Below, one piece after another: positions 152 to 16,860 of a stretch of 16,860 nt of DNA (its first letter is position 1; every line of letters starts with the position of its first letter). Source of the DNA: Deltaproteobacteria bacterium (GTDB taxonomy: Bacteria; Myxococcota_A; Polyangia; Polyangiales; Houyiibacteriaceae). Under the pieces are notes generated by a model that worked only from the letters and a program-made list of their open reading frames with translations, was not told where the DNA came from and made no database searches. The DNA lies in contig JAXMNT010000089.1 in the NCBI GenBank assembly GCA_034670305.1, positions 1 to 16,860 of the forward strand, written 5' to 3'. Made by a program: the position numbers and the translations under genes.

Positions 152-229
152 TGTCTATACTCCTCGAGGGGAACCGAAAACTCTTGTGCGAAGGGGACGA
201 AGGAACGGGGTGCGAAATGCCTGGTGCGA

Positions 230-3130: not shown

Positions 3131-3134
3131 CGAT

Positions 3135-3533: not shown

Positions 3534-3652
3534 CGTAAAGTCGTTGCGGCGAATTCGAAATCGGACCGAAGGGCGTCCCGAATGCCGTCTTAGGGCTCAA
3601 AAATCCCGAAAAACCGTTAGTTTATGGGCCCCCCGGGCTTCGAGGGACGCGA

Positions 3653-3680
3653 AAGATACCGGCGGATGCCCCCCTGTCAA
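3653..3680 (-). promoter_or_regulatory. sigma70-type promoter of the str operon
   Basis: Minus strand TTGACA (3680-3675), 16-nt spacer, TATCTT (3658-3653), about 120 nt upstream of rpsL. Confidence 0.7.
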
Positions 3681-3825
3681 GCCGCCATGACGAGTTAATC
3701 GTCCGCGATCACCGATCGATGCGGCCTTCGGGAGGGGTCGACGGGAGGGCCCGAACGGGGTCCCGCAGCGATCATCCGTCGCCGTCGAGTGATCGTGTTT
3801 GCGGGGTTCCTGACTCGGCCCTGGG

Positions 3826-4785
3826 TCAGAATCGGAGCCGAAGGGTGAGATTTCCGATCCCGATTCCGATCTGCGCTTCCACGCCCGGTGTCTCGGGGGG
3901 CGCGACCTCGGGTTCGAGCTCGATTTCGGGCAAATCGTCCGGCAATGGGCGGGTTCCGGAACGGACACGCGTGGGCACGAACGCCGCCTGGGCTTGAATC
4001 ACACCACTGATCGCGACGATCGCGAGGGTCGCGGAGATGGTCTGGTTGCTCAGGCGGGCCGCCCGCTCGAGCCGGTTGAAGCGGTCGGCGTCTTCGGCGG
4101 GCACGGTCTGGACCTCACCGCGGAGCCAGCGGTGCCACCCCCAGGTCGCGAAACTCAACACCGTCAACGTCGCCTCGAGCACCGCGAACGCAACGCCCAA
4201 ACGCCTCTGATCATTGCGAAATTGGCCAACACCGAAGGGGAGCAGCGCGAGCGCCCGGGAGTTGGTGGTCTCGATGCGGGTCTCCCGGGCGAGCGCCTCG
4301 AGCCGCGCCATGCGCTCCTGCTGGAGGTAGAGCCGCTGGATCGTGCGCTGGTTCTCCCGCTCCAGCCGCTCCCGTTCGGCGCGCCGCTGCGCTTCCCGTT
4401 CGGCGAGGTATCGGGCCCGAACGCCCTGAAACACCTCGACCACGGCCGTCGGGAACTGATGACTGTCGATCTCGTAGGTGTCGTCGGCCCGGAGCAACTC
4501 GGTGAACTGCTCTTCCGATTCGGATCGGCGGTTGAGAAAGAGGTACGTCGCAGCCAGCAACTCACGGCATTCGTTGACGAGGGTGCGGTCTTGCACCCGT
4601 GGGACACCGCCACCCACCATCGACTCGAGCCGCCGCGCGGCGTCGTCGTATTGGTGGCGCTCGTACGCGGAGCGTGCGGCTTGGAAGTCGTCGAAGTCGT
4701 TGGCGTGCACCACCGAAGGTCCGATGAGGGACACGGTCAGCACCAGCGCGACTCTCCGAGCCCAAACTGCGATCCCCGGTCGCAT
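3826..4785 (-). CDS. Exported/membrane protein with TPR-like helical N-terminal domain and C-terminal hydrophobic segments
   Basis: Signal-peptide-like start (VALVLTVSLIGPSVVHA), TPR-like ARSAYERHQYDDAARRLE...LLAATYLFLNRRSESEEQFTELL, a coiled coil, then LLPFGVGQF and two hydrophobic segments. Lies 46 nt downstream of the kinase gene. Confidence 0.8.
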   Translation of the reverse strand: MRPGIAVWARRVALVLTVSLIGPSVVHANDFDDFQAARSAYERHQYDDAARRLESMVGGGVPRVQDRTLVNECRELLAATYLFLNRRSESEEQFTELLRADDTYEIDSHQFPTAVVEVFQGVRARYLAEREAQRRAERERLERENQRTIQRLYLQQERMARLEALARETRIETTNSRALALLPFGVGQFRNDQRRLGVAFAVLEATLTVLSFATWGWHRWLRGEVQTVPAEDADRFNRLERAARLSNQTISATLAIVAISGVIQAQAAFVPTRVRSGTRPLPDDLPEIELEPEVAPPETPGVEAQIGIGIGNLTLRLRF

Positions 4786-4831
4786 TCACCTCCAGCATGC
4801 AACAGCGGCCCACCCCCCGCCGGTCCTGGCG

Positions 4832-6598: not shown

Positions 6599-6678
6599 CC
6601 AGCGGTCTCGACTATCCGCCGTCAGGGTTCACGGGGTCAACGATGGTGTGGGTTGTTGCACGCACAGTCGCCATCGGA

Positions 6679-7980
6679 TCAGTCGACGGGCGTGAGTTCG
6701 TCTGGGAAACACATCTCGACGTCGGAGCGTCCTTCGCCGGCCGCCACGACGAGCACCCCGGACTCGAACACCACCAGCGCGGGCCGACGACGTGGCGCCG
6801 TGAGGGTGAATCGCGGCTGCAAGGACCAGCGCCCATCGAAGCGCGCTTCGGAGACGTCCGCATCTCGCACGAGCCAACCGCCTTGTCCGGTGACGTCCAC
6901 CGCCTCGACGGCGGGCTCGACACCCGGTTCTGCGCGACACGCGCCAGGGCACCCAAGAAGCGAAACGTGGTCGGTGCGGGGTTCGCCGAGGTCGTCGACC
7001 CCGCCGACGAGCCAGAACGCTTCGTCGTCCGCGAGGATCGTCGCACCAAGCCGCAGCGGTTCCGATTCTCCGAAGGGCGCACCCATGTCGCTGGCCGGCT
7101 CGAGCATCTCCGCGACCGCGCCGGTGGTCCCGCCGGCGACGAGTACCCGGTCGCCGAGCGCGATGGCCACGGCACCCGAACGGGGCGCGCTGAGCTGCGT
7201 GCGGTGCACCCGGCCGTCCGCTGCGATCCAGCTGACATCGGACACGGCCGCTCCGTCCAGACTGCCGCCGATGACCGCAGCGCCGCCCGCATAGCTCACC
7301 ACCGCCGAGTCGACGCCCGCACCAGGATGCAGAGACACCGCCGATTCGCGGTCCTCCGCGATGGAGAGATCGAAACTGGCGGCGCCCTGTTCGGAGATGA
7401 TCGCGAACCGGTTCTCGCCGAGGTTCGCGCCCTGCGCTCGGCCGCGGGGTCCGACGAGATCATCGAGCTCCCCGCTGAACATGCGCAGCAGATCCAAGAA
7501 CTCCACCCGCGACGAGAGCAGCGCGTCGTCGAGACCGGCAGCCACGGTGAGGAACGTGTCGATGCGCGCGTTCGCGGTCTGACTGCGCGGCGCGGTGAAC
7601 GCCGCGTCGGGCACCCGCACGCAGCTTCCAGGTTCGCCCATGACGATGCGCACGAGGCCACCCGCGGTGCCAGGTACGAAGGTCGGCGGCGCACCGATGA
7701 GATCGGTCGCCCCCTCGAACGCCACCCGCAGCGACGTCTGGCCGCCGAGCGAATCGATCTCCACGGCGAGGTCGACATCCCCTTCGAGATCCCGGCGCAC
7801 CCGTGTGGTGGGACGTCCCGCCTGAGCGACCTCTACCAGGATGCTCGAGAAGCCGCCCTCGGCCAGCGGGTTGCTCCCGTCGGGCGCGATGAGCTGAACC
7901 TCGACGGTCGGCGGCGCGGGATCCGACTGGCACCCGAGCACGGCGAAGAGAAGAGGGGCCAGCGTTCCGAATCGGCGCAC
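6679..7980 (-). CDS. Putative lipoprotein with Kelch-like beta-propeller repeats
   Basis: GTG at 7980 gives MRRFGTLAPLLFAVLG-C (lipobox). Repeated hydrophobic-GG motifs (AAVIGG, VLVAGG, FWLVGG) follow. The upstream part of the 689-aa track ORF is antisense to the PabB-like gene. Confidence 0.8.
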   Translation of the reverse strand: MRRFGTLAPLLFAVLGCQSDPAPPTVEVQLIAPDGSNPLAEGGFSSILVEVAQAGRPTTRVRRDLEGDVDLAVEIDSLGGQTSLRVAFEGATDLIGAPPTFVPGTAGGLVRIVMGEPGSCVRVPDAAFTAPRSQTANARIDTFLTVAAGLDDALLSSRVEFLDLLRMFSGELDDLVGPRGRAQGANLGENRFAIISEQGAASFDLSIAEDRESAVSLHPGAGVDSAVVSYAGGAAVIGGSLDGAAVSDVSWIAADGRVHRTQLSAPRSGAVAIALGDRVLVAGGTTGAVAEMLEPASDMGAPFGESEPLRLGATILADDEAFWLVGGVDDLGEPRTDHVSLLGCPGACRAEPGVEPAVEAVDVTGQGGWLVRDADVSEARFDGRWSLQPRFTLTAPRRRPALVVFESGVLVVAAGEGRSDVEMCFPDELTPVD

Positions 7981-8043
7981 GCCGCCAGCCTGCGAGAGAG
8001 CCGTACGAGGGGCAACCTGCTTGGGACCGGTAGCGGCCGAACG

Positions 8044-8072
8044 TTGACCGCTGCGCCGGCCACCGGTAAGCC
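8044..8072 (+). promoter_or_regulatory. Putative sigma70 promoter giving a leaderless mRNA for the PabB-like gene
   Basis: TTGACC, 17-nt spacer, TAAGCC; ATG 6 nt downstream; no SD. Confidence 0.45.
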
Positions 8073-8078
8073 GCGGCC

Positions 8079-9347
8079 ATGTTCCGCCGCCCGCTGCCGG
8101 GGTGGACCGAAGACCCGGCGACCACCGCGCTCCGGCTGCGATCATTCGGCGGCCTGGCGTGGCTCGACGACGCGTCGGGGGGGCGCAGCTACCTGGGCTG
8201 CGCGCCGGATCGAGTCGTGGGCGGCACACGGTGGCAACAAGCGCTCGGGCCGATGGAATTGTTCCGGCCTGAAGAGCCCGCGGTGCCCTGGTGGATCGGG
8301 TACGTCGCGTACGACCACACAACTTGGTTTGGCCGGTACGATGCGTTGCTCGAGTGGGCGACCGAGGATGGGCGCTCCTCGGTGCACCTGGTGGGCGAAT
8401 CCGAGGCCGCGATGGACGCGTTGGCGGAGAGACTCCGCTCGGAACCGCGGCCAGCCACCGCACGCCTTGGACCACTCTGCGACCCGGATCCGATCGACCA
8501 CACGATGGGCGTGGACGCGGTGAAACACCACATCGCGGCCGGCGACGTCTACCAGGTGAACCTGGCCCGCGCGTGGCGCGCCGACTTCGAAGGAGACGCC
8601 CTGCACCTCTACCTTGCGATGCGCCGCGCGAGTCCCGTGCCACGGGGCGTGTTCCTCGACGCCGGCCCGTGTGGCGTGTGTGCACTGACGATGGAGCGGT
8701 TTCTGGAATGGCACCCCGACGGGGTGGGTCGGGGCGTGGTCCGATCATCGCCCATCAAAGGAACCATTGCGCGCGCCTCGAACCAGGGCGTGGCCGAAGA
8801 CGCCAGCGGCGCCGAGACGCTTCGGGCCGATCCCAAGGAGCACGCCGAACACTCCATGATCGTCGATCTGGTCCGAAACGATCTCGGCCGGGTCGCCGAG
8901 ATCGGGAGCGTGCATGTGGAGGCACTGCTGGAAGTCGAGTCCTACGCCAAGCTGCAACACCTCGTGAGCACGGTGCGGGCCACCACCCGAGAGACGACCT
9001 CCCTCACGTCGCTCCTGGACGCCACGTTCCCGCCCGGGAGCGTGACGGGCGCGCCGAAGGTGTCCGCGATGAAGATCATCGACGCGCTCGAGCCGGAGCC
9101 GCGCGGGATCTACTGCGGCGCGGTCGGCCACGTGGACCGCCGAGGCGGGATCGACTTCGCCGTCGCCATTCGAACCGCGGTCGTGCGCGATGGCCAGGTC
9201 GTCTACCACGCCGGCGGCGGGCTGGTCTGGGCCTCGGACGCGGCCCGAGAGCTCGCCGAAACCGAGCTCAAGGCGCGCGTGTTCTTGGATGCTGCCGCTG
9301 AGATGCGATCGAGCGAGCGCGACGAAGACACCGCGGTTCGCCCGTAG
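8079..9347 (+). CDS. pabB: Chorismate-binding enzyme, aminodeoxychorismate synthase component I / anthranilate synthase component I family
   Basis: GDVYQVNL, SPIKGT, AEHSMIVDLVRNDLGRV, FPPGSVTGAPKV, RGIYCGAVG and AIRT motifs. PIKGT favours PabB over TrpE. Confidence 0.85.
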   Translation: MFRRPLPGWTEDPATTALRLRSFGGLAWLDDASGGRSYLGCAPDRVVGGTRWQQALGPMELFRPEEPAVPWWIGYVAYDHTTWFGRYDALLEWATEDGRSSVHLVGESEAAMDALAERLRSEPRPATARLGPLCDPDPIDHTMGVDAVKHHIAAGDVYQVNLARAWRADFEGDALHLYLAMRRASPVPRGVFLDAGPCGVCALTMERFLEWHPDGVGRGVVRSSPIKGTIARASNQGVAEDASGAETLRADPKEHAEHSMIVDLVRNDLGRVAEIGSVHVEALLEVESYAKLQHLVSTVRATTRETTSLTSLLDATFPPGSVTGAPKVSAMKIIDALEPEPRGIYCGAVGHVDRRGGIDFAVAIRTAVVRDGQVVYHAGGGLVWASDAARELAETELKARVFLDAAAEMRSSERDEDTAVRP

Positions 9348-9427
9348 TTTGCGAGCGAAAACCGCTCATGCATTTGAGTTGCGAAAAGTATCGCGTAAGA
9401 AAATCGATTCAATCTCAACTTGATGCA

Positions 9428-9456
9428 TTGACACGTGAGAGTTGGACCGTTACCAA
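9428..9456 (+). promoter_or_regulatory. Putative sigma70 promoter of the tRNA array
   Basis: Perfect TTGACA (9428-9433), 17-nt spacer, TACCAA (9451-9456), with an AT-rich tract upstream (9360-9427). Confidence 0.55.
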
Positions 9457-9597
9457 GGGTCCATCGTGATTCATCAAACCCATAGGCCCTCCGCGGCCGC
9501 GACCACCCGACCGGGTGTGCAGAGAGTCTCAGGACTCGCTGTGCAACGGCTCTGGTGCGCGCAGTTGGCGGCAGGATCGATGGGGGCGAAAGCCACG

Positions 9598-9726
9598 ATG
9601 TCGACACTCCCAGCGAGTGCCACGAGTGAAAATTACGGAGAAACCCTTTCCCTTGGATTCGGAAAGCCCTGTCTCGATATTCGAGGCGGCCTGACGGTCC
9701 GCGTGGAGGAGGGTTTCCCCGGCTAG
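9598..9726 (+). CDS. Putative attenuator leader peptide (42 aa; alternative in-frame ATG at 9580)
   Basis: MSTLPASATSENYGETLSLGFGKPCLDIRGGLTVRVEEGFPG*. The stop codon lies within the strand complementary to the downstream terminator. Confidence 0.55.
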   Translation: MSTLPASATSENYGETLSLGFGKPCLDIRGGLTVRVEEGFPG

Positions 9727-9768
9727 GGGCGGCAGCCATCTTGAGGTCACTGGGACCTCACTTCGGAC

Positions 9769-9804
9769 GCCGCCCGCGGAAACCCGCTGGCGGCTTTTTT
9801 GTTT
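9769..9804 (+). terminator. Intrinsic terminator/attenuator upstream of the tRNA array
   Basis: GCCGCC-C-GCGG AAAC CCGC-T-GGCGGC followed by TTTTTTGTTT. Confidence 0.8.
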
Positions 9805-9989
9805 CCGTCTGACCCATGACGAAGTTGGCTCGACCACCTTCGAGGAGGATACGTGCGTCCAAATCAAACAAAGCTGTTCCCGTCATTCAAACGAAGATAC
9901 TCGAAAACCAACACTCGATCCCATTGGATTGCCCGACACTGAGCCCGGGTCTTCGCGAATGTTCCGGTGTGGTGATTCGAGAGTCTGAG

Positions 9990-10204
9990 GAGCCTGGACG
10001 GGGCCCCCACCCAAGGGGTCCAACCCGACGTAGAAAATGGAGTGTGTGCCGCTGGGCGGCAGCTGGGTTGTAACCCGTCTTTCCCGAGGGGATTGCCATC
10101 CCCTCCCCCACCAGGCCGAGCCTGGACGGGGCCCCCACCCAAGGGGTCCAACCCGACGTATAAAATGGAGTGTGTGCCGCTGGGCGGCAGCTGGGTTGTA
10201 ACCC
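9990..10204 (+). repeat. 87-bp direct repeat (9990-10076 and 10118-10204) containing the 5' half of tRNA-Tyr
   Basis: Copies are identical except TAGAAAAT vs TATAAAAT, and are separated by a 41-nt hairpin-containing spacer. Confidence 0.95.
10039..10076 (+). pseudogene. Truncated 5' half of tRNA-Tyr
   Basis: Identical to 10167-10204; ends just after the GTA anticodon loop and has no T arm. Confidence 0.85.
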
Positions 10205-10246
10205 CGGTGAAGCGATGTCTTGGAGGTTCGATTCCTTCGCACTCCA
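10167..10246 (+). tRNA. tRNA-Tyr(GTA)
   Basis: Acceptor GGAGTGT/GCACTCC+A; D arm TGCCGC-TGG-GCGGCA; anticodon arm CTGGG-TTGTAAC-CCCGG; long variable region; T arm GGAGG-TTCGATT-CCTTC. Confidence 0.88.
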
Positions 10247-10251
10247 CCCGA

Positions 10252-10445
10252 CCGGCAGGTCGAAAATCATGCAGCCAAACAGAGGGCTTCGGCTCTGCGG
10301 TTCCGAACTCGGCACCGTCCCATGTGCCCTCCGCGAACGCTCCTTCTGGGAGTGCGAGCGAACCCATCCGCGGGCTTCCTGCGGACTGGGACAGGCGAGG
10401 TGCGCCCAGCGTTCGAAGCGTTGGCCGCGCCAGACCGAAACCGTT
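10252..10445 (+). ncRNA. Structured ncRNA resembling the raiA motif RNA
   Basis: GGTCGAAAATCATGCAG...TGCGGTTCCGAACTCGG...CAGGCGAG...AGACC, with a GGTC/GACC closing helix, a long-range GTCCCA/TGGGAC helix and several internal hairpins. Family assignment is from recall and unverified. Confidence 0.55.
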
Positions 10446-10458
10446 CTCTACGAATCAA

Positions 10459-10530
10459 ACCGGACTCTTCCAATGGCCAGGATGCGCGGCTCTGAACCGC
10501 GTGATCGGGGTTCGAGTCCCTGGTCCGGTA
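10459..10530 (+). tRNA. tRNA-Gln(CTG)
   Basis: ACCGGAC/GTCCGGT+A; CGCGG-CTCTGAA-CCGCG; CGGGG-TTCGAGT-CCCTG. Confidence 0.92.
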
Positions 10531-10679
10531 CCGGTGCCCGCCACTACGGCGAACGAAGCACCAAGTTTCATTGACAATCGGGGGATGCGAAGTGGTGTAG
10601 CGCCTGCTTCGCATCGACCAGAGTTTTCGAAGAGCCGTCGTGTTTCGGCGCGGCGTCTCTTCGGAGCTCCTGGTCTTTT

Positions 10680-10752
10680 GGTGTCCATACAGAGGTCTGT
10701 GCGTTCGGTTGTGATCCGAATCGCCGTTGGGGTTCGAGTCCCCCTGGTCACC
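10680..10752 (+). tRNA. tRNA-His(GTG), atypical
   Basis: G-1:C73 extended acceptor GGTGTCCA/TGGTCACC (one T-T mismatch); TTCGG-TTGTGAT-CCGAA; GGGG-TTCGAGT-CCCC; aberrant D arm. Confidence 0.8.
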
Positions 10753-10754
10753 CC

Positions 10755-10904
10755 GGCAGACTGCTGCGCAGTCTGCCCTAGAAGACCTTCGGTCTTCGGC
10801 GCGCTTCAGAAGACGCTCGGTCTTCGGTGCAGCGTGTGTTGAAGACCGAACGTCTTCCTGACGGGCCTGTGGCCCGTCTAGGGCAGAGTGCGCAGCAGTC
10901 TGCC
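10755..10904. repeat. 27-bp inverted repeat enclosing three hairpins
   Basis: 10755-10781 and 10878-10904 are reverse complements with one mismatch. Confidence 0.9.
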
Positions 10905-10907
10905 TTT

Positions 10908-10979
10908 GCGTTCAAAGTGTTGCGGGTCGCACTCTTGGTTTCCACCCAAGCAGCGAGGGTTCGAGCCCCTCTGAACGCT
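10908..10979 (+). tRNA. tRNA-Gly(TCC)
   Basis: GCGTTCA/TGAACGC+T73; CTTGG-TTTCCAC-CCAAG; GAGGG-TTCGAGC-CCCTC; A at position 8. Confidence 0.9.
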
Positions 10980-11036
10980 CTGCCCTCGGCTCCGAATCCG
11001 ACTCCTGAAGAGGAGCGTCGTTCGAAGCCGATAGGA

Positions 11037-11109
11037 GACTCGAAGGCGTATCTGGTGAGCGCGCTTGGTTGAAGCCCAAGAGATGCTGGTTCGATTCCAG
11101 CTCGAGTCA
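11037..11109 (+). tRNA. tRNA-Phe(GAA)
   Basis: GACTCGA/TCGAGTC+A; CTTGG-TTGAAGC-CCAAG; GCTGG-TTCGATT-CCAGC. Confidence 0.9.
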
Positions 11110-11135
11110 CCGTGTTCCGCAGGGAACACACCAAA

Positions 11136-11211
11136 GGGATCGTGGCCCAACTGGGAAGGCACTCGCCTTGCAAGCGAACGATTGCGGGTTCGAATCCCGC
11201 CGATTCCACCA
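11136..11211 (+). tRNA. tRNA-Ala(TGC)
   Basis: GGGATCG/CGATTCC with the G3:U70 Ala determinant; loop CTTGCAA; GCGGG-TTCGAAT-CCCGC; CCA encoded. Confidence 0.95.
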
Positions 11212-11212
11212 A

Positions 11213-11283
11213 CCACCTGTCGTCCAAAGGTAGGACGCCCGTCTGATAAGCAGGAAACGGAAGTTCGAGTCTTCCCAGGTGGA
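11213..11283 (+). tRNA. tRNA-Ile(GAT)
   Basis: CCACCTG/CAGGTGG+A; GTCC/GGAC D stem; loop CTGATAA (stem has one C-A mismatch); GGAAG-TTCGAGT-CTTCC. Confidence 0.85.
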
Positions 11284-11296
11284 CTGATTTCCTGGC

Positions 11297-11561
11297 CTAC
11301 GGGCCTGGCTCGCTTCGCTCGACTGGCGGCCCTAATTCGGCGTCCAGAGCACATCGACGTGCTCGCCGCCTGCGCATTGGGTGCAGAAGAAGCACTTGGG
11401 TCACTTGGCGGCTGCGCGCGGTCGATGCACTCCCGCCGCCTCTATGACTCACTTGGGGAGTGCACCAGTTGCTCGGCCTGCGGCCTGCGCAGGTGCACGC
11501 CAGCGAGTCGCCTGACTCGTCGGCGCTGAGCGAGGTCCTCGCTTCGCTCGACTGGCGGCCC
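11297..11561 (+). repeat. ~260-bp dispersed repeat with terminal direct repeats, copy A (diverged)
   Basis: Starts CTACGGGCCTGGCTCGCTTCGCTCGACTGGCGGCCC; shares the core GGAGTGCACCAGTTGCTCGGCCTGCGGCCTGCGCAGGTGCAC; ends CTCGCTTCGCTCGACTGGCGGCCC. Confidence 0.9.
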
Positions 11562-11587
11562 GCACCCATCACGAACTTGCTCCACCT

Positions 11588-11672
11588 GCCGGGGTGGCGA
11601 AACGGGAAACGCAGCGAGCTCAAACCTCGTGGCCCTCGTGGCATGGGAGTTCGACTCTCCCCCTCGGCACCA
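11588..11672 (+). tRNA. tRNA-Leu(CAA)
   Basis: GCCGGGG/CCTCGGC+A+CCA; GCGAG-CTCAAAC-CTCGT; long variable arm. Confidence 0.94.
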
Positions 11673-11745
11673 ACCTCGCGACCCGACATTCGGGCTCGCG
11701 CAACTTGATGGTCGGCAGCGCCTCGGCGCCGACGACCGCACACCC

Positions 11746-11830
11746 GCCGGTGTGGCGAAACGGTAAACGCAGCGGTTTGAGAGACCGTGGCCCGCATCAG
11801 GGCTTGGGAGTTCGACTCTCCCCTCCGGCA
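11746..11830 (+). tRNA. tRNA-Leu(GAG)
   Basis: GCCGGTG/CTCCGGC+A (one mismatch); GCGGT-TTGAGAG-ACCGT; long variable arm. Confidence 0.92.
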
Positions 11831-11844
11831 CTGGCTTGCTGCCG

Positions 11845-12104
11845 CTACGGGCCTGGCTCGCTTCGCTCGACTGGCGGCCCTAAGTCGCGCCCGTCGCTGC
11901 CTGCACGTGCTCGCCGCCCATTCATTGGTGCGATGAAGAAGCACCTCGGATGATTTGGCGGCTGCGCGCGTCCAGGCGCTCCTTGAGGCGCTCGGTGTGC
12001 ACTGTAGGAGTGCACCAGTTGCTCGCCTTCGGCTGCGCAGGTGCACGAGTGGTGACTTCTTCCTTCTCTGTCAGGCCTGGCTCGCTTCGCGAGACTGGCG
12101 GCCC
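11845..12104 (+). repeat. ~260-bp dispersed repeat, copy B
   Basis: Same terminal repeats and core as copy A. Confidence 0.9.
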
Positions 12105-12115
12105 ACATTTGTTTT

Positions 12116-12189
12116 GCCGCGTTGTGCATCTGGGATGCTGACCCACTGTCTATGGGTCGAGACGGGTTCGATCCCCGTACGTGGCGCCA
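12116..12189 (+). tRNA. tRNA-Asp(GTC) copy 1
   Basis: GCCGCGT/ACGTGGC+G73+CCA; ACCCA-CTGTCTA-TGGGT; ACGGG-TTCGATC-CCCGT. Confidence 0.88.
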
Positions 12190-12229
12190 CCCTTGGCGCG
12201 GGCCGATCCGTCGGCCGCTCGAGGGCTTG

Positions 12230-12303
12230 TGCAGGGAGGGCTGGTCGTCCGACTCAGGTTCATGGCCTGAGACTGCTCAGTTCGACTCTGAGCCCTGCAT
12301 CCA
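12230..12303 (+). tRNA. tRNA with CAT anticodon (Met/fMet/Ile2 unresolved), atypical
   Basis: TGCAGGG/CCCTGCA+T+CCA; TCAGG-TTCATGG-CCTGA; CTCAG-TTCGACT-CTGAG; weak D arm. Confidence 0.8.
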
Positions 12304-12324
12304 TCGGTCGCCCGCGACCGACTT

Positions 12325-12396
12325 GCCGCGTTGTGCATCTGGGTATGCAGACCCGCTGTCTACGGGTTGAGACGGGTTCAATTCCCGTACGTGGCG
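12325..12396 (+). tRNA. tRNA-Asp(GTC) copy 2
   Basis: GCCGCGT/ACGTGGC+G; ACCCG-CTGTCTA-CGGGT; ACGGG-TTCAATT-CCCGT. Confidence 0.88.
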
Positions 12397-12527
12397 CCCA
12401 ACTACATTGAGTTGTCGTTGTCGTTTTTCTCATGGAGGCGCGTTGTCCATTCGTGCCTCACACCTGCGGTCCGTGCGCGGCGGTCCCCTCGACCAGGTCG
12501 AATCGCCGGGCCGCAGGTGGTCTCTCT

Positions 12528-12602
12528 GCCTTCGAAGCGTAGATAGCGACGTCCCTCCGTCGTACCGAGGGGAGTCCGGTGCAAGTCCGGACGAGGGCTC
12601 CA
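12528..12602 (+). tRNA. tRNA-Thr(CGT)
   Basis: GCCTTCG/CGAGGGC+T+CCA; loop GTCGTAC; TCCGG-TGCAAGT-CCGGA (non-TTC T loop). Confidence 0.82.
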
Positions 12603-12712
12603 ACCGTTTCATTCCTGGACCTGTGCCTCGAGTTCCGACTCCAGGCGCTTCGCCGGAATGCCACATCCCAACGTGGGGCCGTCCCGAGCACCGGCTCGGG
12701 GCGCCCTCGCCT

Positions 12713-12783
12713 GCTCCCGTAGTGAAAAGGAATCACGCGAGTCTCCGGAACTCGAAGTCTCTGTTCGAGTCAGAGCGGGAGTG
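12713..12783 (+). tRNA. tRNA-Arg(CCG)
   Basis: GCTCCCG/CGGGAGT+G; GTGA/TCAC D stem; CGAGT-CTCCGGA-ACTCG; CTCTG-TTCGAGT-CAGAG. Confidence 0.92.
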
Positions 12784-12807
12784 CCGATCGCAACTGCGAT
12801 CTCAACC

Positions 12808-12878
12808 GGCGCGTTCATCTAGCGGAAGGATTGCTGGTTCTCAGCCAGTCCACACGGGTTCGAATCCCGTACGCGTCA
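12808..12878 (+). tRNA. tRNA-Glu(CTC)
   Basis: GGCGCGT/ACGCGTC+A; GCTGG-TTCTCAG-CCAGT; ACGGG-TTCGAAT-CCCGT. Confidence 0.92.
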
Positions 12879-12881
12879 CAA

Positions 12882-12958
12882 CCGTGTGTAGCTCAATCTG
12901 GGAGAGCACCCCGTTCGGGTCGGGGAGGCTGGGGGTTCGAATCCCTTCACGCGGACCA
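12882..12958 (+). tRNA. tRNA-Pro(CGG)
   Basis: CCGTGTG/CACGCGG+A+CCA; GCTC/GAGC D stem; CCCCG-TTCGGGT-CGGGG. Confidence 0.95.
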
Positions 12959-12995
12959 AGGCACGCTGTACCCCGTGGTGCGGCGACCTCTTTCT

Positions 12996-13067
12996 ACTCT
13001 CGTGGTGAAGCAGAATCACGCAGGCGTGCGAAGCCTGAGTCCTCCCGTGCGAATCGGAGCGAGAGTG
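12996..13067 (+). tRNA. tRNA-Arg(GCG), atypical
   Basis: ACTCTCG/CGAGAGT+G; GTGA/TCAC D stem; CAGGC-GTGCGAA-GCCTG; imperfect T stem with TGCGAAT loop. Confidence 0.78.
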
Positions 13068-13135
13068 CCGCGGACGGAAACGTCCGAGTGACACGCCGGT
13101 GCGTCCTCATGGGCGCGCCGACGTCCGAAACACAG

Positions 13136-13210
13136 GGCGCGTTCGTCTAGCGGAAGGACCGTTGGTTTTCAGCCAGCACAACACGGGTTCGAATCCCGTA
13201 CGCGTCTCCA
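13136..13210 (+). tRNA. tRNA-Glu(TTC)
   Basis: GGCGCGT/ACGCGTC+T+CCA; GTTGG-TTTTCAG-CCAGC. Confidence 0.92.
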
Positions 13211-13240
13211 GGCCAAGCCGCTTCTGTGACTGGCCTTCAT

Positions 13241-13318
13241 CCGTGTGTAGCTCAATCTGCGAAGAGCACCCCGTTTGGGTCGGGGCGGCTGGGGGTTCGA
13301 ATCCCTTCGCACGGACCA
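13241..13318 (+). tRNA. tRNA-Pro(TGG)
   Basis: CCGTGTG/CGCACGG+A+CCA; CCCCG-TTTGGGT-CGGGG. Confidence 0.94.
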
Positions 13319-13359
13319 ACGATCGTCATGCCGCACCGGTGCCGTGTGGCGGTCGTCTT

Positions 13360-13430
13360 GTACCGGTGTTCTGGGAACGCCGTCGATTGCAACCCGACGA
13401 AGGTGAGTTCGACTCTCACTCGGTACTCCA
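13360..13430 (+). tRNA. tRNA-Cys(GCA), minimal D arm
   Basis: GTACCGG/TCGGTAC+U73 (Cys determinant)+CCA; loop TTGCAAC; GTGAG-TTCGACT-CTCAC; D arm GTTC-TGG-GAAC. Confidence 0.85.
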
Positions 13431-13432
13431 TT

Positions 13433-13504
13433 CGCTGTGTGCCCTGGGGGCCGACGTTCTTCATATGGACGAGCGCGAGGGTTCGATTTCCTCCGCAGCG
13501 ACCA
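13433..13504 (+). tRNA. tRNA with CAT anticodon (Met or Ile2), minimal D arm
   Basis: CGCTGTG/CGCAGCG+A+CCA; D arm GCCC-TGG-GGGC; CGTTC-TTCATAT-GGACG; GAGGG-TTCGATT-TCCTC. Confidence 0.8.
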
Positions 13505-13525
13505 CTCGATGCAACCGCATCGTGC

Positions 13526-13601
13526 GCGGGATGAGTCGTCTGGCGACGACATCGTTTTTACATGGCGACACAGCAGAGTTCGATTCTCTGATCCCGTACC
13601 A
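13526..13601 (+). tRNA. tRNA-Val(TAC)
   Basis: GCGGGAT/ATCCCGT+A+CCA; 6-bp D stem GTCGTC-TGGC-GACGAC; loop TTTACAT; CAGAG-TTCGATT-CTCTG. Confidence 0.88.
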
Positions 13602-13646
13602 CCGGCCGTGAACGCGGCCGGGCCAACGCAGTTGCGACTGCACCCA

Positions 13647-13727
13647 GCCGGGATGGCGAAACGGTAAACGCAGCGAGCTTAGACCTCGTGGCCTCGAGGC
13701 ATGGGAGTTCGACTCTCCCTCCCGGCA
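13647..13727 (+). tRNA. tRNA-Leu(TAG)
   Basis: GCCGGGA/TCCCGGC+A; GCGAG-CTTAGAC-CTCGT; long variable arm. Confidence 0.94.
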
Positions 13728-13739
13728 CTGTATTTCTCA

Positions 13740-13840
13740 CTACGGGCCTGGCTCGCTTCGCGAGACGGTGCCTTCTGAGGGGGAAGGGTTCCCCCTCCGG
13801 CCTTCGGCCTCCTCCCCACCTTGGGCCCTAGGTCGCGCCG
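13740..13840 (+). repeat. Short variant of the dispersed repeat (terminal unit interrupted by palindromes)
   Basis: CTACGGGCCTGGCTCGCTTCGCGAGAC...GGGCCCTAGGTCGCGCC, with GAGGGGGAA-GGG-TTCCCCCTC and GGCC-TTC-GGCC hairpins in between. Confidence 0.75.
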
Positions 13841-13938
13841 CCTGGTCGGCCCCTTTGTCTTCGCGTTTCGGATGGTCCGGGGCGCTTCCTCCACTCTCAC
13901 TCGAAGCGCGTGCACAGCACGCAGGAAGTCATCTCGCC

Positions 13939-14457
13939 ATGCGCACGCTCGTCCTGGATCAGGGCTACCAACCACACCAAATCGTCTCCTGGCAAAAGGC
14001 CGTCACCTTGCTCTACGTGGGCAAGGTGGATGTGCTCGAGGAGTACGAGGACATCATCCGCTCCGTCACGCTCGCGATGCGCATGCCGGCCGTCGTTCGA
14101 CTCCGCAAGGGTGGACACAAGCCGAAGCACCGCATCAAGTTCTCGCGTCTGAACGTCTTCCTTCGGGACGGCTTCCGGTGCCAGTACTGCGGTGAGAAGT
14201 TCCCGATGCGCGACCTCACGTACGACCACGTGCTGCCCAAGGCACACGGAGGAAAGACGACGTGGACGAACATCGTGACCGCTTGCCGAGCGTGCAACGA
14301 GACCAAGGCGAACCGGACGCCAGAGCAGGCCAAGATGCCGCTTCGCAAGAAGCCGGTTCGGCCGACCTGGCTCCCCGGCGGAACAGTGCATGTCGATGCA
14401 TCCCTGGTCCCCGACACCTGGAAGTCCTGGATGTCGTGGACGAAGGTGCTCGCCTAA
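13939..14457 (+). CDS. HNH endonuclease (McrA-like/HNH_5 type, zinc-binding), 172 aa
   Basis: MRTLVLDQGYQP...VFLRDGFRCQYCG...LTYDHVLPKAHGG...NIVTACRACNETK. The ATG at 13939 follows an AGGA SD; the track start at 13768 lies in a repeat. Confidence 0.95.
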   Translation: MRTLVLDQGYQPHQIVSWQKAVTLLYVGKVDVLEEYEDIIRSVTLAMRMPAVVRLRKGGHKPKHRIKFSRLNVFLRDGFRCQYCGEKFPMRDLTYDHVLPKAHGGKTTWTNIVTACRACNETKANRTPEQAKMPLRKKPVRPTWLPGGTVHVDASLVPDTWKSWMSWTKVLA

Positions 14458-14583
14458 GGGCTGAGTTCATTCTGGGTGAGGGCGCTCAATGGTGAGCGCC
14501 CACACCTCCAACGGTCGGTCGAGAGACCGGCTGCGTCGATCCCATGCGTACCACTTCGCCGCGGGCGCATGGGGTCGAGTTCT

Positions 14584-14673
14584 GGAAGAAGATTCGGTGT
14601 GGCACCGAAGACCGTTGGAAGCGGTTCTGCGCGCGGGAACGCGCGAGGGGTTCGACTCCTCCTTCTTCCGCCA
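14584..14673 (+). tRNA. tRNA-Ser(GGA), (8/4) fold
   Basis: 8-bp acceptor GGAAGAAG/CTTCTTCC+G+CCA; 4-bp T stem GGGG/CCTC; loop TTGGAAG; long variable arm CGCGCG-GGAA-CGCGCG. Confidence 0.9.
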
Positions 14674-14933
14674 GTCTCGCGAAGCGAGCCAGGCAACGTG
14701 CAGCGCCAGCGAGTCAGGCATCCCGCGGGTGCACCTGCGCAGGCCGCAGGCCGAGCAACTGGTGCACTCCTACAATGAACACCGAGCGCCCAAGAGGAGC
14801 GCCTGGACGCGCGCAGCCGCCAGTCGTTCCAAGTGCTTTTTCAGTACCCCACTGGGTTGGGCGGCGAGCACGTGCAGGTGCTCCGGGGTGCGACTTAGGG
14901 CCGCCAGTCTCGCGAAGCGAGCCAGGCCCGTAG
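14668..14933 (-). repeat. ~260-bp dispersed repeat, inverted copy
   Basis: Reverse complement of copies A/B; terminal repeats are 233 bp apart; overlaps the CCGCCA end of tRNA-Ser(GGA). Confidence 0.92.
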
Positions 14934-14946
14934 TGGCAATAAAAAA

Positions 14947-15036
14947 GGAAGGCGAACCGGTCGGGTGACCGGAGCTGATTGCTAATCAGTATGGCCCGCA
15001 CGACGGGTTGGGGTTCGAGACCTCCGACTTCCGCCA
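14947..15036 (+). tRNA. tRNA-Ser(GCT), (8/4) fold
   Basis: GGAAGGCG/CGACTTCC (one G-A mismatch)+G+CCA; D arm CCGGTC-GGGT-GACCGG; GCTGA-TTGCTAA-TCAGT; T stem GGGG/CCTC. Confidence 0.92.
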
Positions 15037-15042
15037 TATTGC

Positions 15043-15089
15043 TGGGGGCACAGCCCCCAAGGAATATTTCTTGGGGGCACAGCCCCCAA
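15043..15089. repeat. Doublet of REP-like palindromes TGGGGGCACAGCCCCCAA
   Basis: Two identical palindromes at 15043-15060 and 15072-15089. Confidence 0.85.
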
Positions 15090-15197
15090 ACCCCGTCCCG
15101 GTGACACCGCTGGCTCGCTTCGCGAGGCTGCACGCTGTCGAATATTCGGAAGCTCCTGGAGCAGGGAGTGTCTTCAAAGGCCGGCGAAGCCGGGGCT

Positions 15198-15257
15198 CAC
15201 GTACACGTGCACGTACTCGTAGACGTGCACGTATTCGTGAGCGTCCTCGTACCCGTT
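15198..15257. repeat. Degenerate hexamer tandem repeat (NNCGTN x10)
   Basis: cacgta cacgtg cacgta ctcgta gacgtg cacgta ttcgtg agcgtc ctcgta cccgtt. Confidence 0.85.
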
Positions 15258-15336
15258 CAGCACATCTTGGAGAGCATCGAGACCACCCGAACGAGGAGCT
15301 GCCCTCGCGGTGAGTCTGCTCGCCCCCAAGAAATAT

Positions 15337-15408
15337 TCTGGAGTAGCTCAGTGGCAGAGCACCGGCTTGTTAAGTCGACGTGGGTGGGTTCGATTCCCTC
15401 CTCCAGAG
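15337..15408 (+). tRNA. tRNA-Asn(GTT)
   Basis: TCTGGAG/CTCCAGA+G73; TAGCTCAGTGGCAGAGC D arm; loop TTGTTAA; T loop TTCGATT. Confidence 0.9.
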
Positions 15409-15462
15409 CCGCCAAAGATCTCGTGGCCTTGCGAGTGTCTGCGCTCTGCGTACCGTGGGCGT

Positions 15463-15915
15463 ATGCAACCATCGTCGTTCGACTCGTTGCCTGGTATCGC
15501 GGCCATCGGCTACGGGGGCGCAAACCTAGTCCTGCGTGTCCGCGACGCGCGCGGGCGCTGGCTTCGCGTTCACGAAGACGGGGCGCTCGAGATCGCACGC
15601 GGCGACGCGCGGACGGAGCGCGAACGCGTCGACGCAGGTGCGCTGTCGGGACCCGCTCCTCTTGCACTCATCGACTCTCTGCATCGCGACCTCGTCTCGC
15701 ACCCGCTCACGAAGCCGTCTCCATGGCCGCGCTTCTACCCCTTGCAGGTCTTCCGCTGGCGCGAACATCCTTCTGACGACGCGGAGCTCGTCGAGGGATA
15801 CATTGGAATCGAGTCCGAGATGGGTTGCATCGTCGACGTGTTCGGTGTGCGTGGTCGGCAAGGGCGCGAGATCGTCGGGGCGCTCAATGAGCTCCTCTCC
15901 GCCATGCCACGCTGA
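15463..15915 (+). CDS. Hypothetical protein, 150 aa
   Basis: High GC at third codon positions; ATG lies 6 nt after a TTGCGA-16nt-TACCGT promoter-like site. The track start at 15310 overlaps tRNA-Asn. No family recognised. Confidence 0.65.
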   Translation: MQPSSFDSLPGIAAIGYGGANLVLRVRDARGRWLRVHEDGALEIARGDARTERERVDAGALSGPAPLALIDSLHRDLVSHPLTKPSPWPRFYPLQVFRWREHPSDDAELVEGYIGIESEMGCIVDVFGVRGRQGREIVGALNELLSAMPR

Positions 15916-16042
15916 CCCGCGCGCTGCGCTTGGATCTGCACAGGGCGCGACTTGGACCCAGGGGAGAAGGCGTGCTTGCACGCCGAGGGGGACTCCAGCT
16001 CCCTCGCCAGCGCCAAACGCGCGATGCCCTTGCCCTTAAGGT

Positions 16043-16168
16043 GCGGTTCTGCGGCTCTGCGGTCCTGCGGTCCTGGGGCAAGGGCACGGGCAAGGGTCCG
16101 TAAGGGCAAGGGTCCGTAAGGGCACGGGCAAGGGTCCGTAAGGGCAAGGGCAAGGGTCCGTAAGGGGA
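16043..16168. repeat. Short tandem repeats (GCGGTCCT-like x4, then an AGGGCA / AGGGTCCGTA mosaic)
   Basis: Directly visible 8-, 6- and 10-nt periodicity. Confidence 0.9.
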
Positions 16169-16204
16169 CGCGAAGCGAGCCAGGCCCGTGCCCCCAAGGA
16201 ATAG

Positions 16205-16297
16205 GGAAGGTGACCCGGTCACTGGTGTCCGGAGCCGCCTCGAAAGCGGTGTGCGCCCAGAAATGGGTGTGGGGTTCGATTCCTCTGCCTTCCTCCA
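16205..16297 (+). tRNA. tRNA-Ser(CGA), probable (8/4) fold
   Basis: GGAAGGTG/TGCCTTCC+T+CCA; GCCGC-CTCGAAA-GCGGT; variable arm GCGCCCA-GAAA-TGGGTGT; T stem GGGG/CCTC. Confidence 0.9.
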
Positions 16298-16322
16298 ACG
16301 CGGGTCCCGTCGTGGCCCGCAT

Positions 16323-16494
16323 CGTGGCGCCGGCGGGCGCACGGTTCGATACCAGAGACGGGCTAGCGACCTGTCTCGGTGGCGGTGTCTTGCACGGTCG
16401 CGTGGTCGACCGCCGGGGGCTTGGCCCCTTCGGTGGAATCCACCCGCGCCGGTTGCACACAGCGCCACCCGAACCGAACCCGCCGGCCGCCACG
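16323..16494 (+). ncRNA. Unassigned ~170-nt three-way-junction structured RNA candidate
   Basis: 5' and 3' ends pair over 22 bp in three segments and enclose two further long hairpins. Confidence 0.4.
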
Positions 16495-16500
16495 TCACGG

Positions 16501-16860
16501 AGTCTCGCGAAGCGAGCCAGGCCCGAACAGCGCCTGCGAGTCAGGCATCTCCGCGTGTGCACCTGCGCAGGCCGCAGGCCGAGCAACTGGTGCACTCCCA
16601 AATGGAACACCGAGCGCCCAAGAGGAGCGCCTGGACGCGCGCAGCCGCCAGTCGTTTCAAGTGCTTCTTCAGTACCCCAGTTGATCGGGCGGCGAGCACG
16701 TGCAGGTGCTCCGGGGCGCGACTTAGGGCCGCCAGTCTCGCGAAGCGAGCCAGGCCCGAACAGCGCCTGCGAGTCAGGCATCTCCGCGTGTGCACCTGCG
16801 CAGGCCGCAGGCCGAGCAACTGGTGCACTCCCAAATGGAACACCGAGCGCCCAAGAGGAG
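16501..16860 (-). repeat. Dispersed repeat in head-to-tail tandem (233-bp period), runs off window end
   Basis: 16734-16860 is identical to 16501-16627; homologous to 14668-14933. Confidence 0.95.

Follow-up and report, generated by a model that had tools for sequence, protein, structure and literature searches.

The window, a stretch of 16,860 nucleotides that makes up the entire contig JAXMNT010000089.1 (C89) in an assembly of a Deltaproteobacteria bacterium of the class Polyangia (GCA_034670305.1; 7.93 Mb, 105 contigs, 96% complete, 64.8% G+C), carries in its right half a long same-strand array of transfer RNA (tRNA) genes with an HNH endonuclease gene inside it. The locus is best read, and in our judgment probably, as a chromosomal, HNH-linked long tRNA array that provides a supernumerary, divergent, and partly non-canonical tRNA set by the mechanism outlined below. 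That the window holds a chromosomal, vertically kept version of an HNH-linked array, and that selection acts on the structure of its tRNA genes, can be stated with high confidence. The array and the L-arrays or tRNA array units of cyanobacterial and mycobacterial plasmids are modules of one kind. HNH-linked long tRNA arrays are known as a kind; new are the chromosomal, syntenic, and clade-wide setting in Polyangia, the presence of (8/4) serine tRNAs as fixed members, and an array-linked HNH family that tracks phylum lines. Genomes, contigs, and loci are referred to below by G, C, and L numbers, G000 being the genome of the window.

Composition and structural conservation of the tRNA set

With default settings, ARAGORN called 24 tRNA genes within 10166-16297, all on the plus strand, and three more, Ser(GCU), Cys(GCA), and Thr(CGU), were added by orthology or covariance model (Table 1). 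The resulting 27 genes serve 18 amino acids, lysine and tryptophan being absent from the window, which is the count that an earlier note had reached from the letters of this DNA. The relaxed ARAGORN thresholds recommended there, applied here at -ps80, did recover Thr(CGU) and Ser(GCU), but proved unspecific, as 18 of the 58 calls fell in the upstream coding region; extra tRNAs were therefore admitted only with an orthologue or a model score. One relaxed call, "Thr(UGU)" at 10037-10112, was rejected because it duplicates the tRNA-Tyr 5' half in truncated form. The added Cys(GCA) is 88.6% identical, by blastn and alignment, to the array tRNA-Cys of a relative (G004, locus L022).

Contig C102 (5.7 kb) supplies what the window lacks. 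In a whole-genome ARAGORN run it opens with Lys(UUU), Lys(CUU), and Trp(CCA), all on one strand; a Band7 gene, a hypothetical gene, tRNA-Gln(UUG), tlyA, and ssb come next. Since gene order runs contiguously from pabB through the array to TlyA and SSB in relatives, C102 is, by gene order, the right end of the C89 locus. The ends of C89 share no overlap of 15 nt or more with any contig, and the link between C89 and C102 is one of synteny only. C89 breaks off within a repeat, of which 127 nt at 16734-16860 duplicate 16501-16627 exactly, and this accounts for the assembly break. Once C102 is counted, the array comprises no fewer than 30 tRNA genes and serves all 20 amino acids, and the Lys and Trp tRNAs that the earlier note had proposed looking for downstream are in place.

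This set is redundant with the tRNA genes found elsewhere in the genome. The general Rfam tRNA model (RF00005) has 66 matches in the assembly: 14 on C89, two Lys genes on C102, three in an odd cluster on C5, and 47 dispersed. The 47 dispersed tRNAs, Gln(UUG) among them, cover every amino acid, and 24 of the 27 ARAGORN-called array tRNAs (24 on C89, three on C102) have a trusted same-anticodon twin outside the array, the exceptions being Leu(GAG), Leu(UAG), and Arg(GCG). As in L-arrays, isodecoders are added and decoding capacity is not extended; the near-complete alternative tRNA set that the earlier note had seen in a myxobacterium is borne out, complete for 20 amino acids with C102. The closed 9.07-Mb genome of the relative G012 is similarly divided, with 29 of 77 RF00005 matches in the array locus and 48 elsewhere.

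Redundancy goes together with marked divergence. Array tRNAs are 0.56-0.75 identical to their same-anticodon housekeeping twins (median 0.62); the tRNAs with the same anticodon in other arrays are closer, with median identities of 0.76 (G012), 0.68 (Polyangium sp.), and 0.67 (Byssovorax). Against mycobacterial array tRNAs (0.64) and the Nostoc array (0.60) there is no clear gain over the organism's own housekeeping genes. In 21 of 24 array tRNAs the 7-nt anticodon loop is unlike that of every trusted housekeeping tRNA with the same anticodon. The RF00005 threshold is reached by 14 of the 24 ARAGORN-called window tRNAs. An encoded CCA end was considered as a hallmark of the array and dropped as non-discriminating, being equally common in array (14 of 27) and dispersed (26 of 47) tRNAs.

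The leucine genes deserve separate mention. The array's Leu(UAG) is the only one found in the assembly. Outside the array, a tRNA-Leu(AAG) at G000:C69:28963-29046 (52.8 bits) is accompanied by Leu(CAG), and no convincing dispersed Leu(GAG) or Leu(UAG) was found. By wobble rules, Leu(AAG) with a deaminated A34 together with Leu(CAG) can read all CUN codons, and the dispersed set suggests CUN decoding by A34-to-inosine conversion, which would be unusual in bacteria. The L020 array also includes a Leu(AAG).

Evidence for selection on the array comes from its stems. The stems of the window tRNAs were projected onto the best same-anticodon orthologue in up to eight arrays, giving 3360 pair comparisons. 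Pairs were unchanged in 1913 cases, changed on one side and still paired in 254, and changed on both sides and still paired in 667; 191 were gapped and 335 broken, part of the broken ones being an artefact of crude pairwise alignment with distant sequences. On this pattern of substitution, the array genes are under selection for tRNA folds. Judged by established tRNA identity rules, identity elements are also kept: G3:U70 in Ala, G-1:C73 in His, U73 with the GCA anticodon in Cys, C1:G72 with A73 in Pro, and a long variable arm with G73 or U73 in Ser.

For the serine family, 14 array tRNAs (three from the window and 11 from eight other loci) were aligned. Paired cells make up 95.2% of this alignment, against 47-54% with partners slid; none of 500 shuffles equaled the observed value, and double changes occur at 21 of 27 pairs. 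An eighth acceptor pair is standard in all 14 tRNAs (GC in nine, AU in three, GU in two), and a canonical fifth T-stem pair is possible in only one, which implies a 4-bp T stem. The D stem has six pairs, 98.8% paired and with double changes at all six; the variable-arm helix is 91.1% paired, and the discriminator is G or U. The predicted fold of the window Ser tRNAs is that of the (8/4) allo-tRNA-Ser architecture, and it explains why these genes match the Rfam selenocysteine tRNA (tRNA-Sec) model and not the tRNA model. Such allo-tRNAs have been described from phages, proteobacteria, and rumen Clostridia, and in Acidobacteria from polycistrons of irregular tRNAs (Mukai et al. 2017, PMC5389517). 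The Polyangia genes share with those described there the 8-bp acceptor stem, the 4-bp T stem, a long D stem with a small loop, a long variable arm, G73 or U73, and serine anticodons. What sets them apart is their place as fixed members of a clade-wide array; none of the terms looked for on myxobacteria, Deltaproteobacteria, or tRNA clusters and arrays occurs in the main text of PMC5389517.

A fixed chromosomal site and its HNH family

The earlier note had drawn attention to an HNH gene interleaved with the tRNAs, and this gene (Pfam HNH_5, 1.6e-17) is real, with its true start at 13939 and a product of 172 aa. Its start, MRTLVLDQGY, is kept in 17 of 17 orthologues, and its catalytic and zinc residues are invariant in the same 17. 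The AlphaFold model has a mean predicted local distance difference test (pLDDT) score of 79.8. PDB matches span the HNH domain only, for example, a Geobacter nicking HNH and the HNH domains of Cas9 and IscB. Foldseek likewise aligned the model via the HNH domain only, over about 59-88 columns and mostly to Cas9 or Gme HNH domains, and returned no structural match for the N-terminal domain (residues 1-57).

Homologues of this protein were found by tblastn in 107 plasmid records, and two of them stand at known arrays. On the M. intracellulare plasmid NZ_CP084587, a homologue with 39.9% identity lies mid-array among 28 co-oriented tRNAs. On pCC7120delta of Nostoc sp. PCC 7120, a homologue with 34% identity over residues 4-142 (E 3e-29) lies directly 5' of 24 co-oriented ARAGORN-called tRNAs; by position it is the all8564 gene beside the trn operon described in PMC8421152. 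The homologue on an Acaryochloris plasmid has no tRNA within 7 kb. The locus therefore shows the linked HNH of L-arrays, as well as their same-strand run of tRNA genes (27 on the window plus three on C102), one much longer than accretion would produce.

Synteny among relatives, a comparison proposed in the earlier note, reveals the same locus order in several Polyangia genera. L016, L022, and L026 have an unbroken series of pabB, array with HNH, Band7, hypothetical gene, tRNA-Gln(UUG), TlyA, and SSB, which L015 shows in part, and the arrays of L032 and L033 are flanked by rpsL, a hypothetical gene, and pabB on the left and by TlyA and SSB on the right. In all, synteny extends across at least four genera and at least two families. 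In the NCBI taxonomy, Polyangiaceae and Sandaracinaceae belong to Polyangiales, within Polyangia. Of 41 genomes searched with the HNH query, namely G000 and 40 relatives, 30 gave a match at E<=0.001 and 25 a strong one at E<=2e-45.

Array size was counted in 12 relatives with ARAGORN over about 10 kb on each side of the HNH gene, or less at contig ends. Four loci have 38, 34, 32, and 17 tRNAs, five have 4-8, and three have 1-2. A second set of named species comprised 80 loci, 16 assigned to Myxococcota by title or tree position and 64 to other phyla. Among the 16, nine have 12-35 tRNAs, one has six, four have two, and two have none; one of the nine large arrays cannot count as independent, as its gene order repeats that of L020. 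The upstream tRNA is a tRNA-Leu in 11 of about 21 Myxococcota HNH loci having one.

A quick maximum-likelihood tree of 100 HNH rows, in which those labeled "PolyOther" include short loci where an array cannot be judged, unites all 32 Myxococcota rows in one clade, with a Shimodaira-Hasegawa-like approximate likelihood ratio test (SH-aLRT) value of 99. Acidobacteriota, Alphaproteobacteria, Vulcanimicrobiota, and Bdellovibrionota form groups of their own, and the mycobacterial, Nostoc, and phage Mx1 proteins sit on long branches outside the Myxococcota clade. Because the neighborhood is fixed, the locus is present clade-wide, and the HNH tracks phyla, these data point to a long vertical residence with repeated expansion and loss. 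The scattered distribution by horizontal transfer that sets L-arrays apart (PMC8421152) is not what is found here, where the neighborhood is fixed, the HNH forms one clade, and the closest tRNAs are those of Polyangia arrays. Nor does the locus have the surroundings of an integrative element or prophage, its flanking genes being pabB, Band7, TlyA, and SSB and the ORFs scanned showing no integrase or phage Pfam family.

Known arrays offer close parallels and clear differences. L-arrays hold up to 43 tRNA genes, occur in all classes of Proteobacteria among other groups, and have a conserved HNH gene (PMC8421152). In Mycobacterium tRNA array units, HNH is the most widespread linked gene (PMC5966550); these units carry 26-32 tRNAs for 19-20 amino acids and a single embedded HNH, are redundant with chromosomal tRNAs, and have been suggested to play an anti-defense role (PMC12803027). 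With the Nostoc trn operon, the Polyangia locus shares a long co-oriented array, redundancy with housekeeping tRNAs, and a co-oriented HNH of the same family. The Nostoc array is described as plasmid-borne and horizontally spread, with the HNH 5' of the array and short spacers, whereas the Polyangia array is chromosomal and syntenic across genera, with the HNH mid-array and long, repeat-invaded spacers. Induction by translational stress has been shown for the Anabaena PCC 7120 (Nostoc) array (PMC8421152). The mycobacterial units resemble it in tRNA number, redundancy, and the single HNH embedded in the array, but are described from plasmids, phages, or variable sites and not from a fixed chromosomal one, and their HNH is a long-branch outgroup to the Polyangia HNH in the quick tree. 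No myxobacterial tRNA array was found in the literature searched, with the proviso that the species list in supplementary Dataset S1B of PMC8421152 may include such genomes.

Phages provide a further comparison. In the Myxococcus phage Mx1 (OR576727.2, 1-7000), an HNH homologue with 46% identity is flanked by two tRNA-Leu genes and lies 3' of genes for a TROVE-domain protein, tRNA-Gly, and peptidyl-tRNA hydrolase, a small RNA-repair or translation cluster. Only four tRNAs are present in the region of Mx1 examined. The SegB enzyme of phage T4 is of the GIY-YIG type, unlike HNH. Such phage tRNA clusters with homing endonucleases (T4 SegB, as cited in PMC8421152, and Mx1) likewise have a nuclease gene among tRNA genes.

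Two other observations concern the family. The genome itself encodes a second, divergent HNH paralogue (G000:C16:126063-126689; 39-44% identity, one in-frame TGA), and many relatives have second copies similar to it. In the array-less Polyangia loci L017, L018, L019, and L029-L031, the HNH gene adjoins a single tRNA, either Gln(UUG) on its 3' side or Arg(CCU) on its 5' side.

Leader unit, spacers, and flanking genes

Upstream of the array, the earlier note had placed a promoter-like site and a terminator acting as an attenuator. Both elements are present and conserved, but they bracket a unit of their own of about 375 nt, and the attenuator remains an inference. The promoter-like site lies 3' of the pabB stop (9347), and the terminator lies 371 nt 5' of the first tRNA. 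The arrangement TTGACAC, 17 nt, TAnnnn recurs in five of 13 loci examined (the window, L015, L022, L020, and L023), and a similar hairpin with a T-run stands 320-567 nt 5' of the first tRNA in nine of 13; the window terminator is 92% identical over 38 nt to that of L015. The leader body is unique in the genome and not conserved among relatives. A small-protein reading of 9428-9804 was rejected, since G+C content at third codon positions (GC3) lies at 0.62-0.80, below the 0.82-0.89 of real genes, and the would-be peptides cannot be aligned. Although 9440-9810 folds better than shuffles (z -3.27), a conserved structured RNA found no support, with an RNAalifold consensus of -16.75 kcal/mol and a covariation term of +0.76. 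Neither a T-box nor any other Rfam leader family matched the leader, whose conserved part is the terminator hairpin only. We read 9428-9804 as a putative separate small transcription unit with conserved ends, and it may be an unclassified small RNA gene.

The spacers are largely shaped by a dispersed repeat of about 265 nt. Besides the copies in Table 1, parts of three further spacers derive from it in either orientation. About 60 near-full copies, in both orientations and with conserved ends of about 43 nt (CTACGGGCCTGGCTCGCTTCGC...), lie on 27-28 other contigs, several of which end in the repeat; it looks like a miniature inverted-repeat transposable element or a repetitive extragenic palindrome (REP)-like element. 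Since they are copies of a genome-wide repeat, most of the long spacers are not array-specific RNAs, contrary to the earlier suggestion of structured noncoding RNAs. The remaining spacers are unique in the genome. The raiA-like RNA proposed in the earlier note was not recovered either, no Rfam row for raiA appearing at E<=1 in 9000-16860, and no non-tRNA Rfam family reached E<=0.01 in this interval, where the weak rows are at chance level or overlap tRNAs. Two other features were seen in spacers. That between tRNA-His and tRNA-Gly (10755-10907) forms an extended imperfect palindrome with 71.7% self-complementarity across about 150 nt and chance-level weak matches to microRNA precursor models; and four copies of a tandem unit of about 22 nt (AAGGGCAAGGGTCCGT...) occupy 16080-16172, just 5' of tRNA-Ser(CGA).

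To the left, the contig is ordinary chromosome. The genes rpsL and rpsG have one copy each in the genome, and this, together with the gene content, identifies the left half as a str-operon neighborhood and not a mobile element. Plus-strand open reading frames (ORFs) in 1-8500 were discarded as chance frames in GC-rich DNA, the true genes lying on the minus strand by GC3 and Pfam. The earlier note's statement that phage and integrase genes are absent holds, as none of the corresponding Pfam families was found in the scanned ORFs of the window and the C102 flanks, the PHROGs library not being searched. Between the kinase gene and pabB, about 1.5 kb (6612-8078) contains only two minus-strand ORFs (6612-7292 and 7296-7778) without a family match, and neither has a tblastn match in any related locus searched.

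The odd cluster on C5 is a separate matter. In L002 (G000:C5:118000-129000), at 4857-7692, a weak YrlA Y-RNA-like match (28.2 bits, below threshold) precedes three tRNA-like elements, one a 147-nt RF00005 match, after which comes a 524-aa ORF with a faint vWA signal. The region resembles an Rsr/Y-RNA locus; the ORF has no PDB sequence match and no TROVE Pfam match.

Table 1. Features of the window, in order of position; bit scores are those of the Rfam models named.
Feature	Position	Strand	Basis
fusA	230-2473	-	GC3 and Pfam
rpsG	2660-3130	-	GC3 and Pfam
rpsL	3135-3533	-	GC3 and Pfam
Hypothetical gene	3826-4785	-	GC3 and Pfam
Ser/Thr kinase gene	4832-6598	-	GC3 and Pfam
pabB-like gene	8079-9347	+	Family search
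Promoter-like site (TTGACA 9428-9433, 17 nt, TACCAA 9451-9456)	9428-9456	+	Read from sequence
Body of ~375-nt promoter-to-terminator unit, probably non-coding	9457-9768	+	GC3, alignment, fold
Intrinsic terminator, GCCGCC..GGCGGC hairpin then TTTTTTGTTT	9769-9804	+	dG -25.4
Truncated duplicate: 48 nt of upstream sequence and 5' half of tRNA-Tyr	9990-10076	+	87-nt direct repeat, 99% to 10118-10204
tRNA-Tyr(GUA), 8-bp acceptor stem, long variable arm	10166-10249	+	ARAGORN; no RF00005 match; tRNA-Sec model 43.8 bits
tRNA-Gln(CUG)	10459-10532	+	ARAGORN; RF00005 51.2 bits
tRNA-His(GUG), encoded G-1 opposite C73	10681-10754	+	ARAGORN; no RF00005 match
tRNA-Gly(UCC)	10908-10980	+	ARAGORN; RF00005 51 bits
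tRNA-Phe(GAA)	11037-11111	+	ARAGORN; RF00005 62.8 bits
tRNA-Ala(UGC), G3:U70	11136-11211	+	ARAGORN; RF00005 60.4 bits
tRNA-Ile(GAU)	11213-11284	+	ARAGORN; RF00005 59.9 bits
Copy of dispersed ~265-nt repeat, in spacer	11297-11568	+	Repeat search
tRNA-Leu(CAA)	11588-11672	+	ARAGORN; RF00005 51 bits
tRNA-Leu(GAG)	11746-11831	+	ARAGORN; RF00005 51 bits
Copy of dispersed ~265-nt repeat	11845-12111	+	Repeat search
tRNA-Asp(GUC), U37	12116-12189	+	ARAGORN; no RF00005 match
tRNA-Met(CAU)	12230-12303	+	ARAGORN; no RF00005 match
tRNA-Asp(GUC), second copy, U37	12324-12400	+	ARAGORN
tRNA-Thr(CGU), T-loop GUGCAAG	12528-12602	+	Relaxed ARAGORN only; orthologues in L022 and L020, aligned
tRNA-Arg(CCG)	12713-12785	+	ARAGORN; RF00005 55.7 bits
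tRNA-Glu(CUC)	12808-12879	+	ARAGORN; RF00005 49.1 bits
tRNA-Pro(CGG), C1:G72, A73	12882-12958	+	ARAGORN; RF00005 58.6 bits
tRNA-Arg(GCG), without trusted twin elsewhere in genome	12996-13069	+	ARAGORN; no RF00005 match
tRNA-Glu(UUC)	13136-13210	+	ARAGORN; RF00005 49 bits
tRNA-Pro(UGG)	13241-13318	+	ARAGORN; RF00005 55.5 bits
tRNA-Cys(GCA), U73-CCA, reduced D arm	13360-13429	+	Missed by default ARAGORN; tRNA-Sec model 22.4 bits
tRNA-Met(CAU), reduced D arm	13433-13504	+	ARAGORN; no RF00005 match
tRNA-Val(UAC)	13526-13601	+	ARAGORN; no RF00005 match
tRNA-Leu(UAG), directly 5' of HNH gene	13647-13728	+	ARAGORN; RF00005 56.7 bits
HNH endonuclease gene, 172 aa, N-terminal beta-rich domain and Cys4 HNH	13939-14457	+	Pfam HNH_5 1.6e-17
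tRNA-Ser(GGA), 8/4 architecture	14584-14673	+	ARAGORN; pair counts
Copy of dispersed ~265-nt repeat	14668-14938	-	Repeat search
tRNA-Ser(GCU), 8/4 architecture	14945-15035	+	tRNA-Sec model 40.1 bits, E 2e-5; relaxed ARAGORN; aligned with array Ser tRNAs
tRNA-Asn(GUU)	15337-15410	+	ARAGORN; RF00005 57.3 bits
tRNA-Ser(CGA), 8/4 architecture	16205-16297	+	ARAGORN; tRNA-Sec model 48.2 bits
Two overlapping or tandem copies of dispersed repeat, contig end inside	16501-16860	-	Repeat search

Proposed mechanism and alternative readings

A working model can be sketched in which the array would be transcribed as one or a few polycistrons, the transcripts processed by RNase P and 3' trimming, and the tRNAs charged by host synthetases. 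The product would be an alternative tRNA pool with bodies and anticodon loops unlike those of the housekeeping set. The array is likely to yield charged tRNAs used in translation. By analogy with the Nostoc module, the upstream terminators would probably hold the pool low, and particular conditions, translational stress or an attack on tRNAs among them, would raise it. Conditional expression is plausible in view of these terminators and of the homology with the Anabaena module. The HNH enzyme, for its part, probably acts on DNA in or next to tRNA genes, which would lead to gain, loss, and shuffling of array members.

Several findings weigh against this model. Strong terminators stand 5' of the array, with a second one 13-45 nt before the first tRNA in three of 13 loci, and a sigma-70 scan of 9000-16860 returned no promoter-like site, the TTGACA site included. 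At E<=0.001, the general Rfam tRNA model misses 13 of the 27 tRNAs, and odd features occur as well: both Asp tRNAs have U37, the D arms of Cys and one Met are reduced, Gln has A73, and Thr(CGU) has the GUGCAAG T-loop; on these grounds, some array members may be inactive. At least five repeat invasions and the truncated tRNA-Tyr duplicate are what a tolerated, weakly used region might show. Array size ranges from 1 to 38 tRNAs among relatives, so the array is dispensable in some lineages. Finally, 64 loci of other phyla carry the HNH family and have just 0-2 tRNAs in the vicinity, from which it follows that the HNH needs no array.

The earlier note went further and proposed the locus as a candidate stress-inducible back-up operon, in which 9428-9804 is an attenuator and read-through on translational stalling switches on the array. 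Such a switch is favored by the homology of the HNH to the gene next to the stress-induced Anabaena array (PMC8421152), by a promoter-like site and a terminator kept in five and nine of the 13 loci, and by a leader that folds better than its shuffles. We nevertheless regard it as unlikely, for the leader body is unconserved in both sequence and structure and matches no T-box or other leader family, and PMC8421152 describes control of the Anabaena array by operator repeats at the promoter, with no attenuator. Moreover, the terminator is distant from the first tRNA and some relatives have a second one adjoining it, so the leader may be an independent small RNA gene. A related proposal is that the divergent array tRNAs are poor substrates for tRNA-cleaving toxins, whether from phage defense, phages, or competitors, and form a reserve that lets translation continue while housekeeping tRNAs are cut. 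This would fit the anticodon loops that differ from all twins, the low identity to those twins, the anti-defense role suggested for mycobacterial units (PMC12803027), and the Mx1 HNH, which is flanked by tRNA-Leu genes and has a TROVE protein and a peptidyl-tRNA hydrolase close by. Old divergence alone, however, would be expected to produce the loop differences, and no tRNase or defense gene is linked in the window or on C102; we regard a nuclease-resistant reserve as unlikely too.

Two further readings were weighed. The array could be a largely inert relic of a phage or plasmid array, fixed in the chromosome and kept by a selfish HNH. Low or absent covariance-model scores in 13 of 27 tRNAs, the repeat insertions and truncated tRNA copy, and shrinkage to 1-8 tRNAs in eight of 12 relatives are in keeping with decay, but compensatory changes preserve the stems across genera and families, the locus is syntenic in at least four genera and two families, and the catalytic and zinc residues of the HNH are invariant. 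In addition, a hopping homing gene would not be expected to place all 32 Myxococcota rows in one clade (SH-aLRT 99) with other phyla apart. We consider the relic quite unlikely on this balance. That the array is instead the organism's main tRNA operon is highly improbable: the single-copy rpsL-rpsG-fusA operon is about 6 kb away, and the array contains the only Leu(UAG) in the assembly and the only convincing Arg(GCG), yet a complete dispersed set of 47 exists, with RF00005 scores of up to 74.7 bits against 44-62.8 in the array. Dispersed Leu(AAG) and Leu(CAG) would suffice for CUN codons if A34 is deaminated, and relatives exist with only 1-2 tRNAs at the locus.

The favored reading, a chromosomal, vertically kept array, bears on how such loci are viewed. 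tRNA arrays are usually seen as patchy plasmid or phage cargo, with stress back-up in Anabaena and anti-defense in mycobacteria as proposed roles. Here, an array at a fixed site that varies from 1 to 38 genes, with stems kept by compensatory change, offers a natural comparative series, and hosts such as Polyangium and Byssovorax are cultivable. The rare 8/4 serine fold is placed in a defined, conserved genomic setting, and a widespread HNH family that follows phylum lines questions the simple picture of a homing endonuclease carrying the array. Taken jointly, and only tentatively, Polyangia may possess a second tRNA pool at a single chromosomal locus beside the str operon, inherited vertically at family level or deeper and kept as a regulated, distinct resource, in which an old, phylum-tracking HNH nucleates arrays. 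Such a pool would include the 8/4 Ser tRNAs and the altered anticodon loops, and its members would be, for example, toxin-surviving or life-stage tRNAs and not passengers. If this is true, the repeated nucleation of arrays by an HNH protein of about 170 residues, in Polyangia as on mycobacterial and cyanobacterial plasmids, would suggest that the nuclease and tRNA genes are directly connected biochemically.

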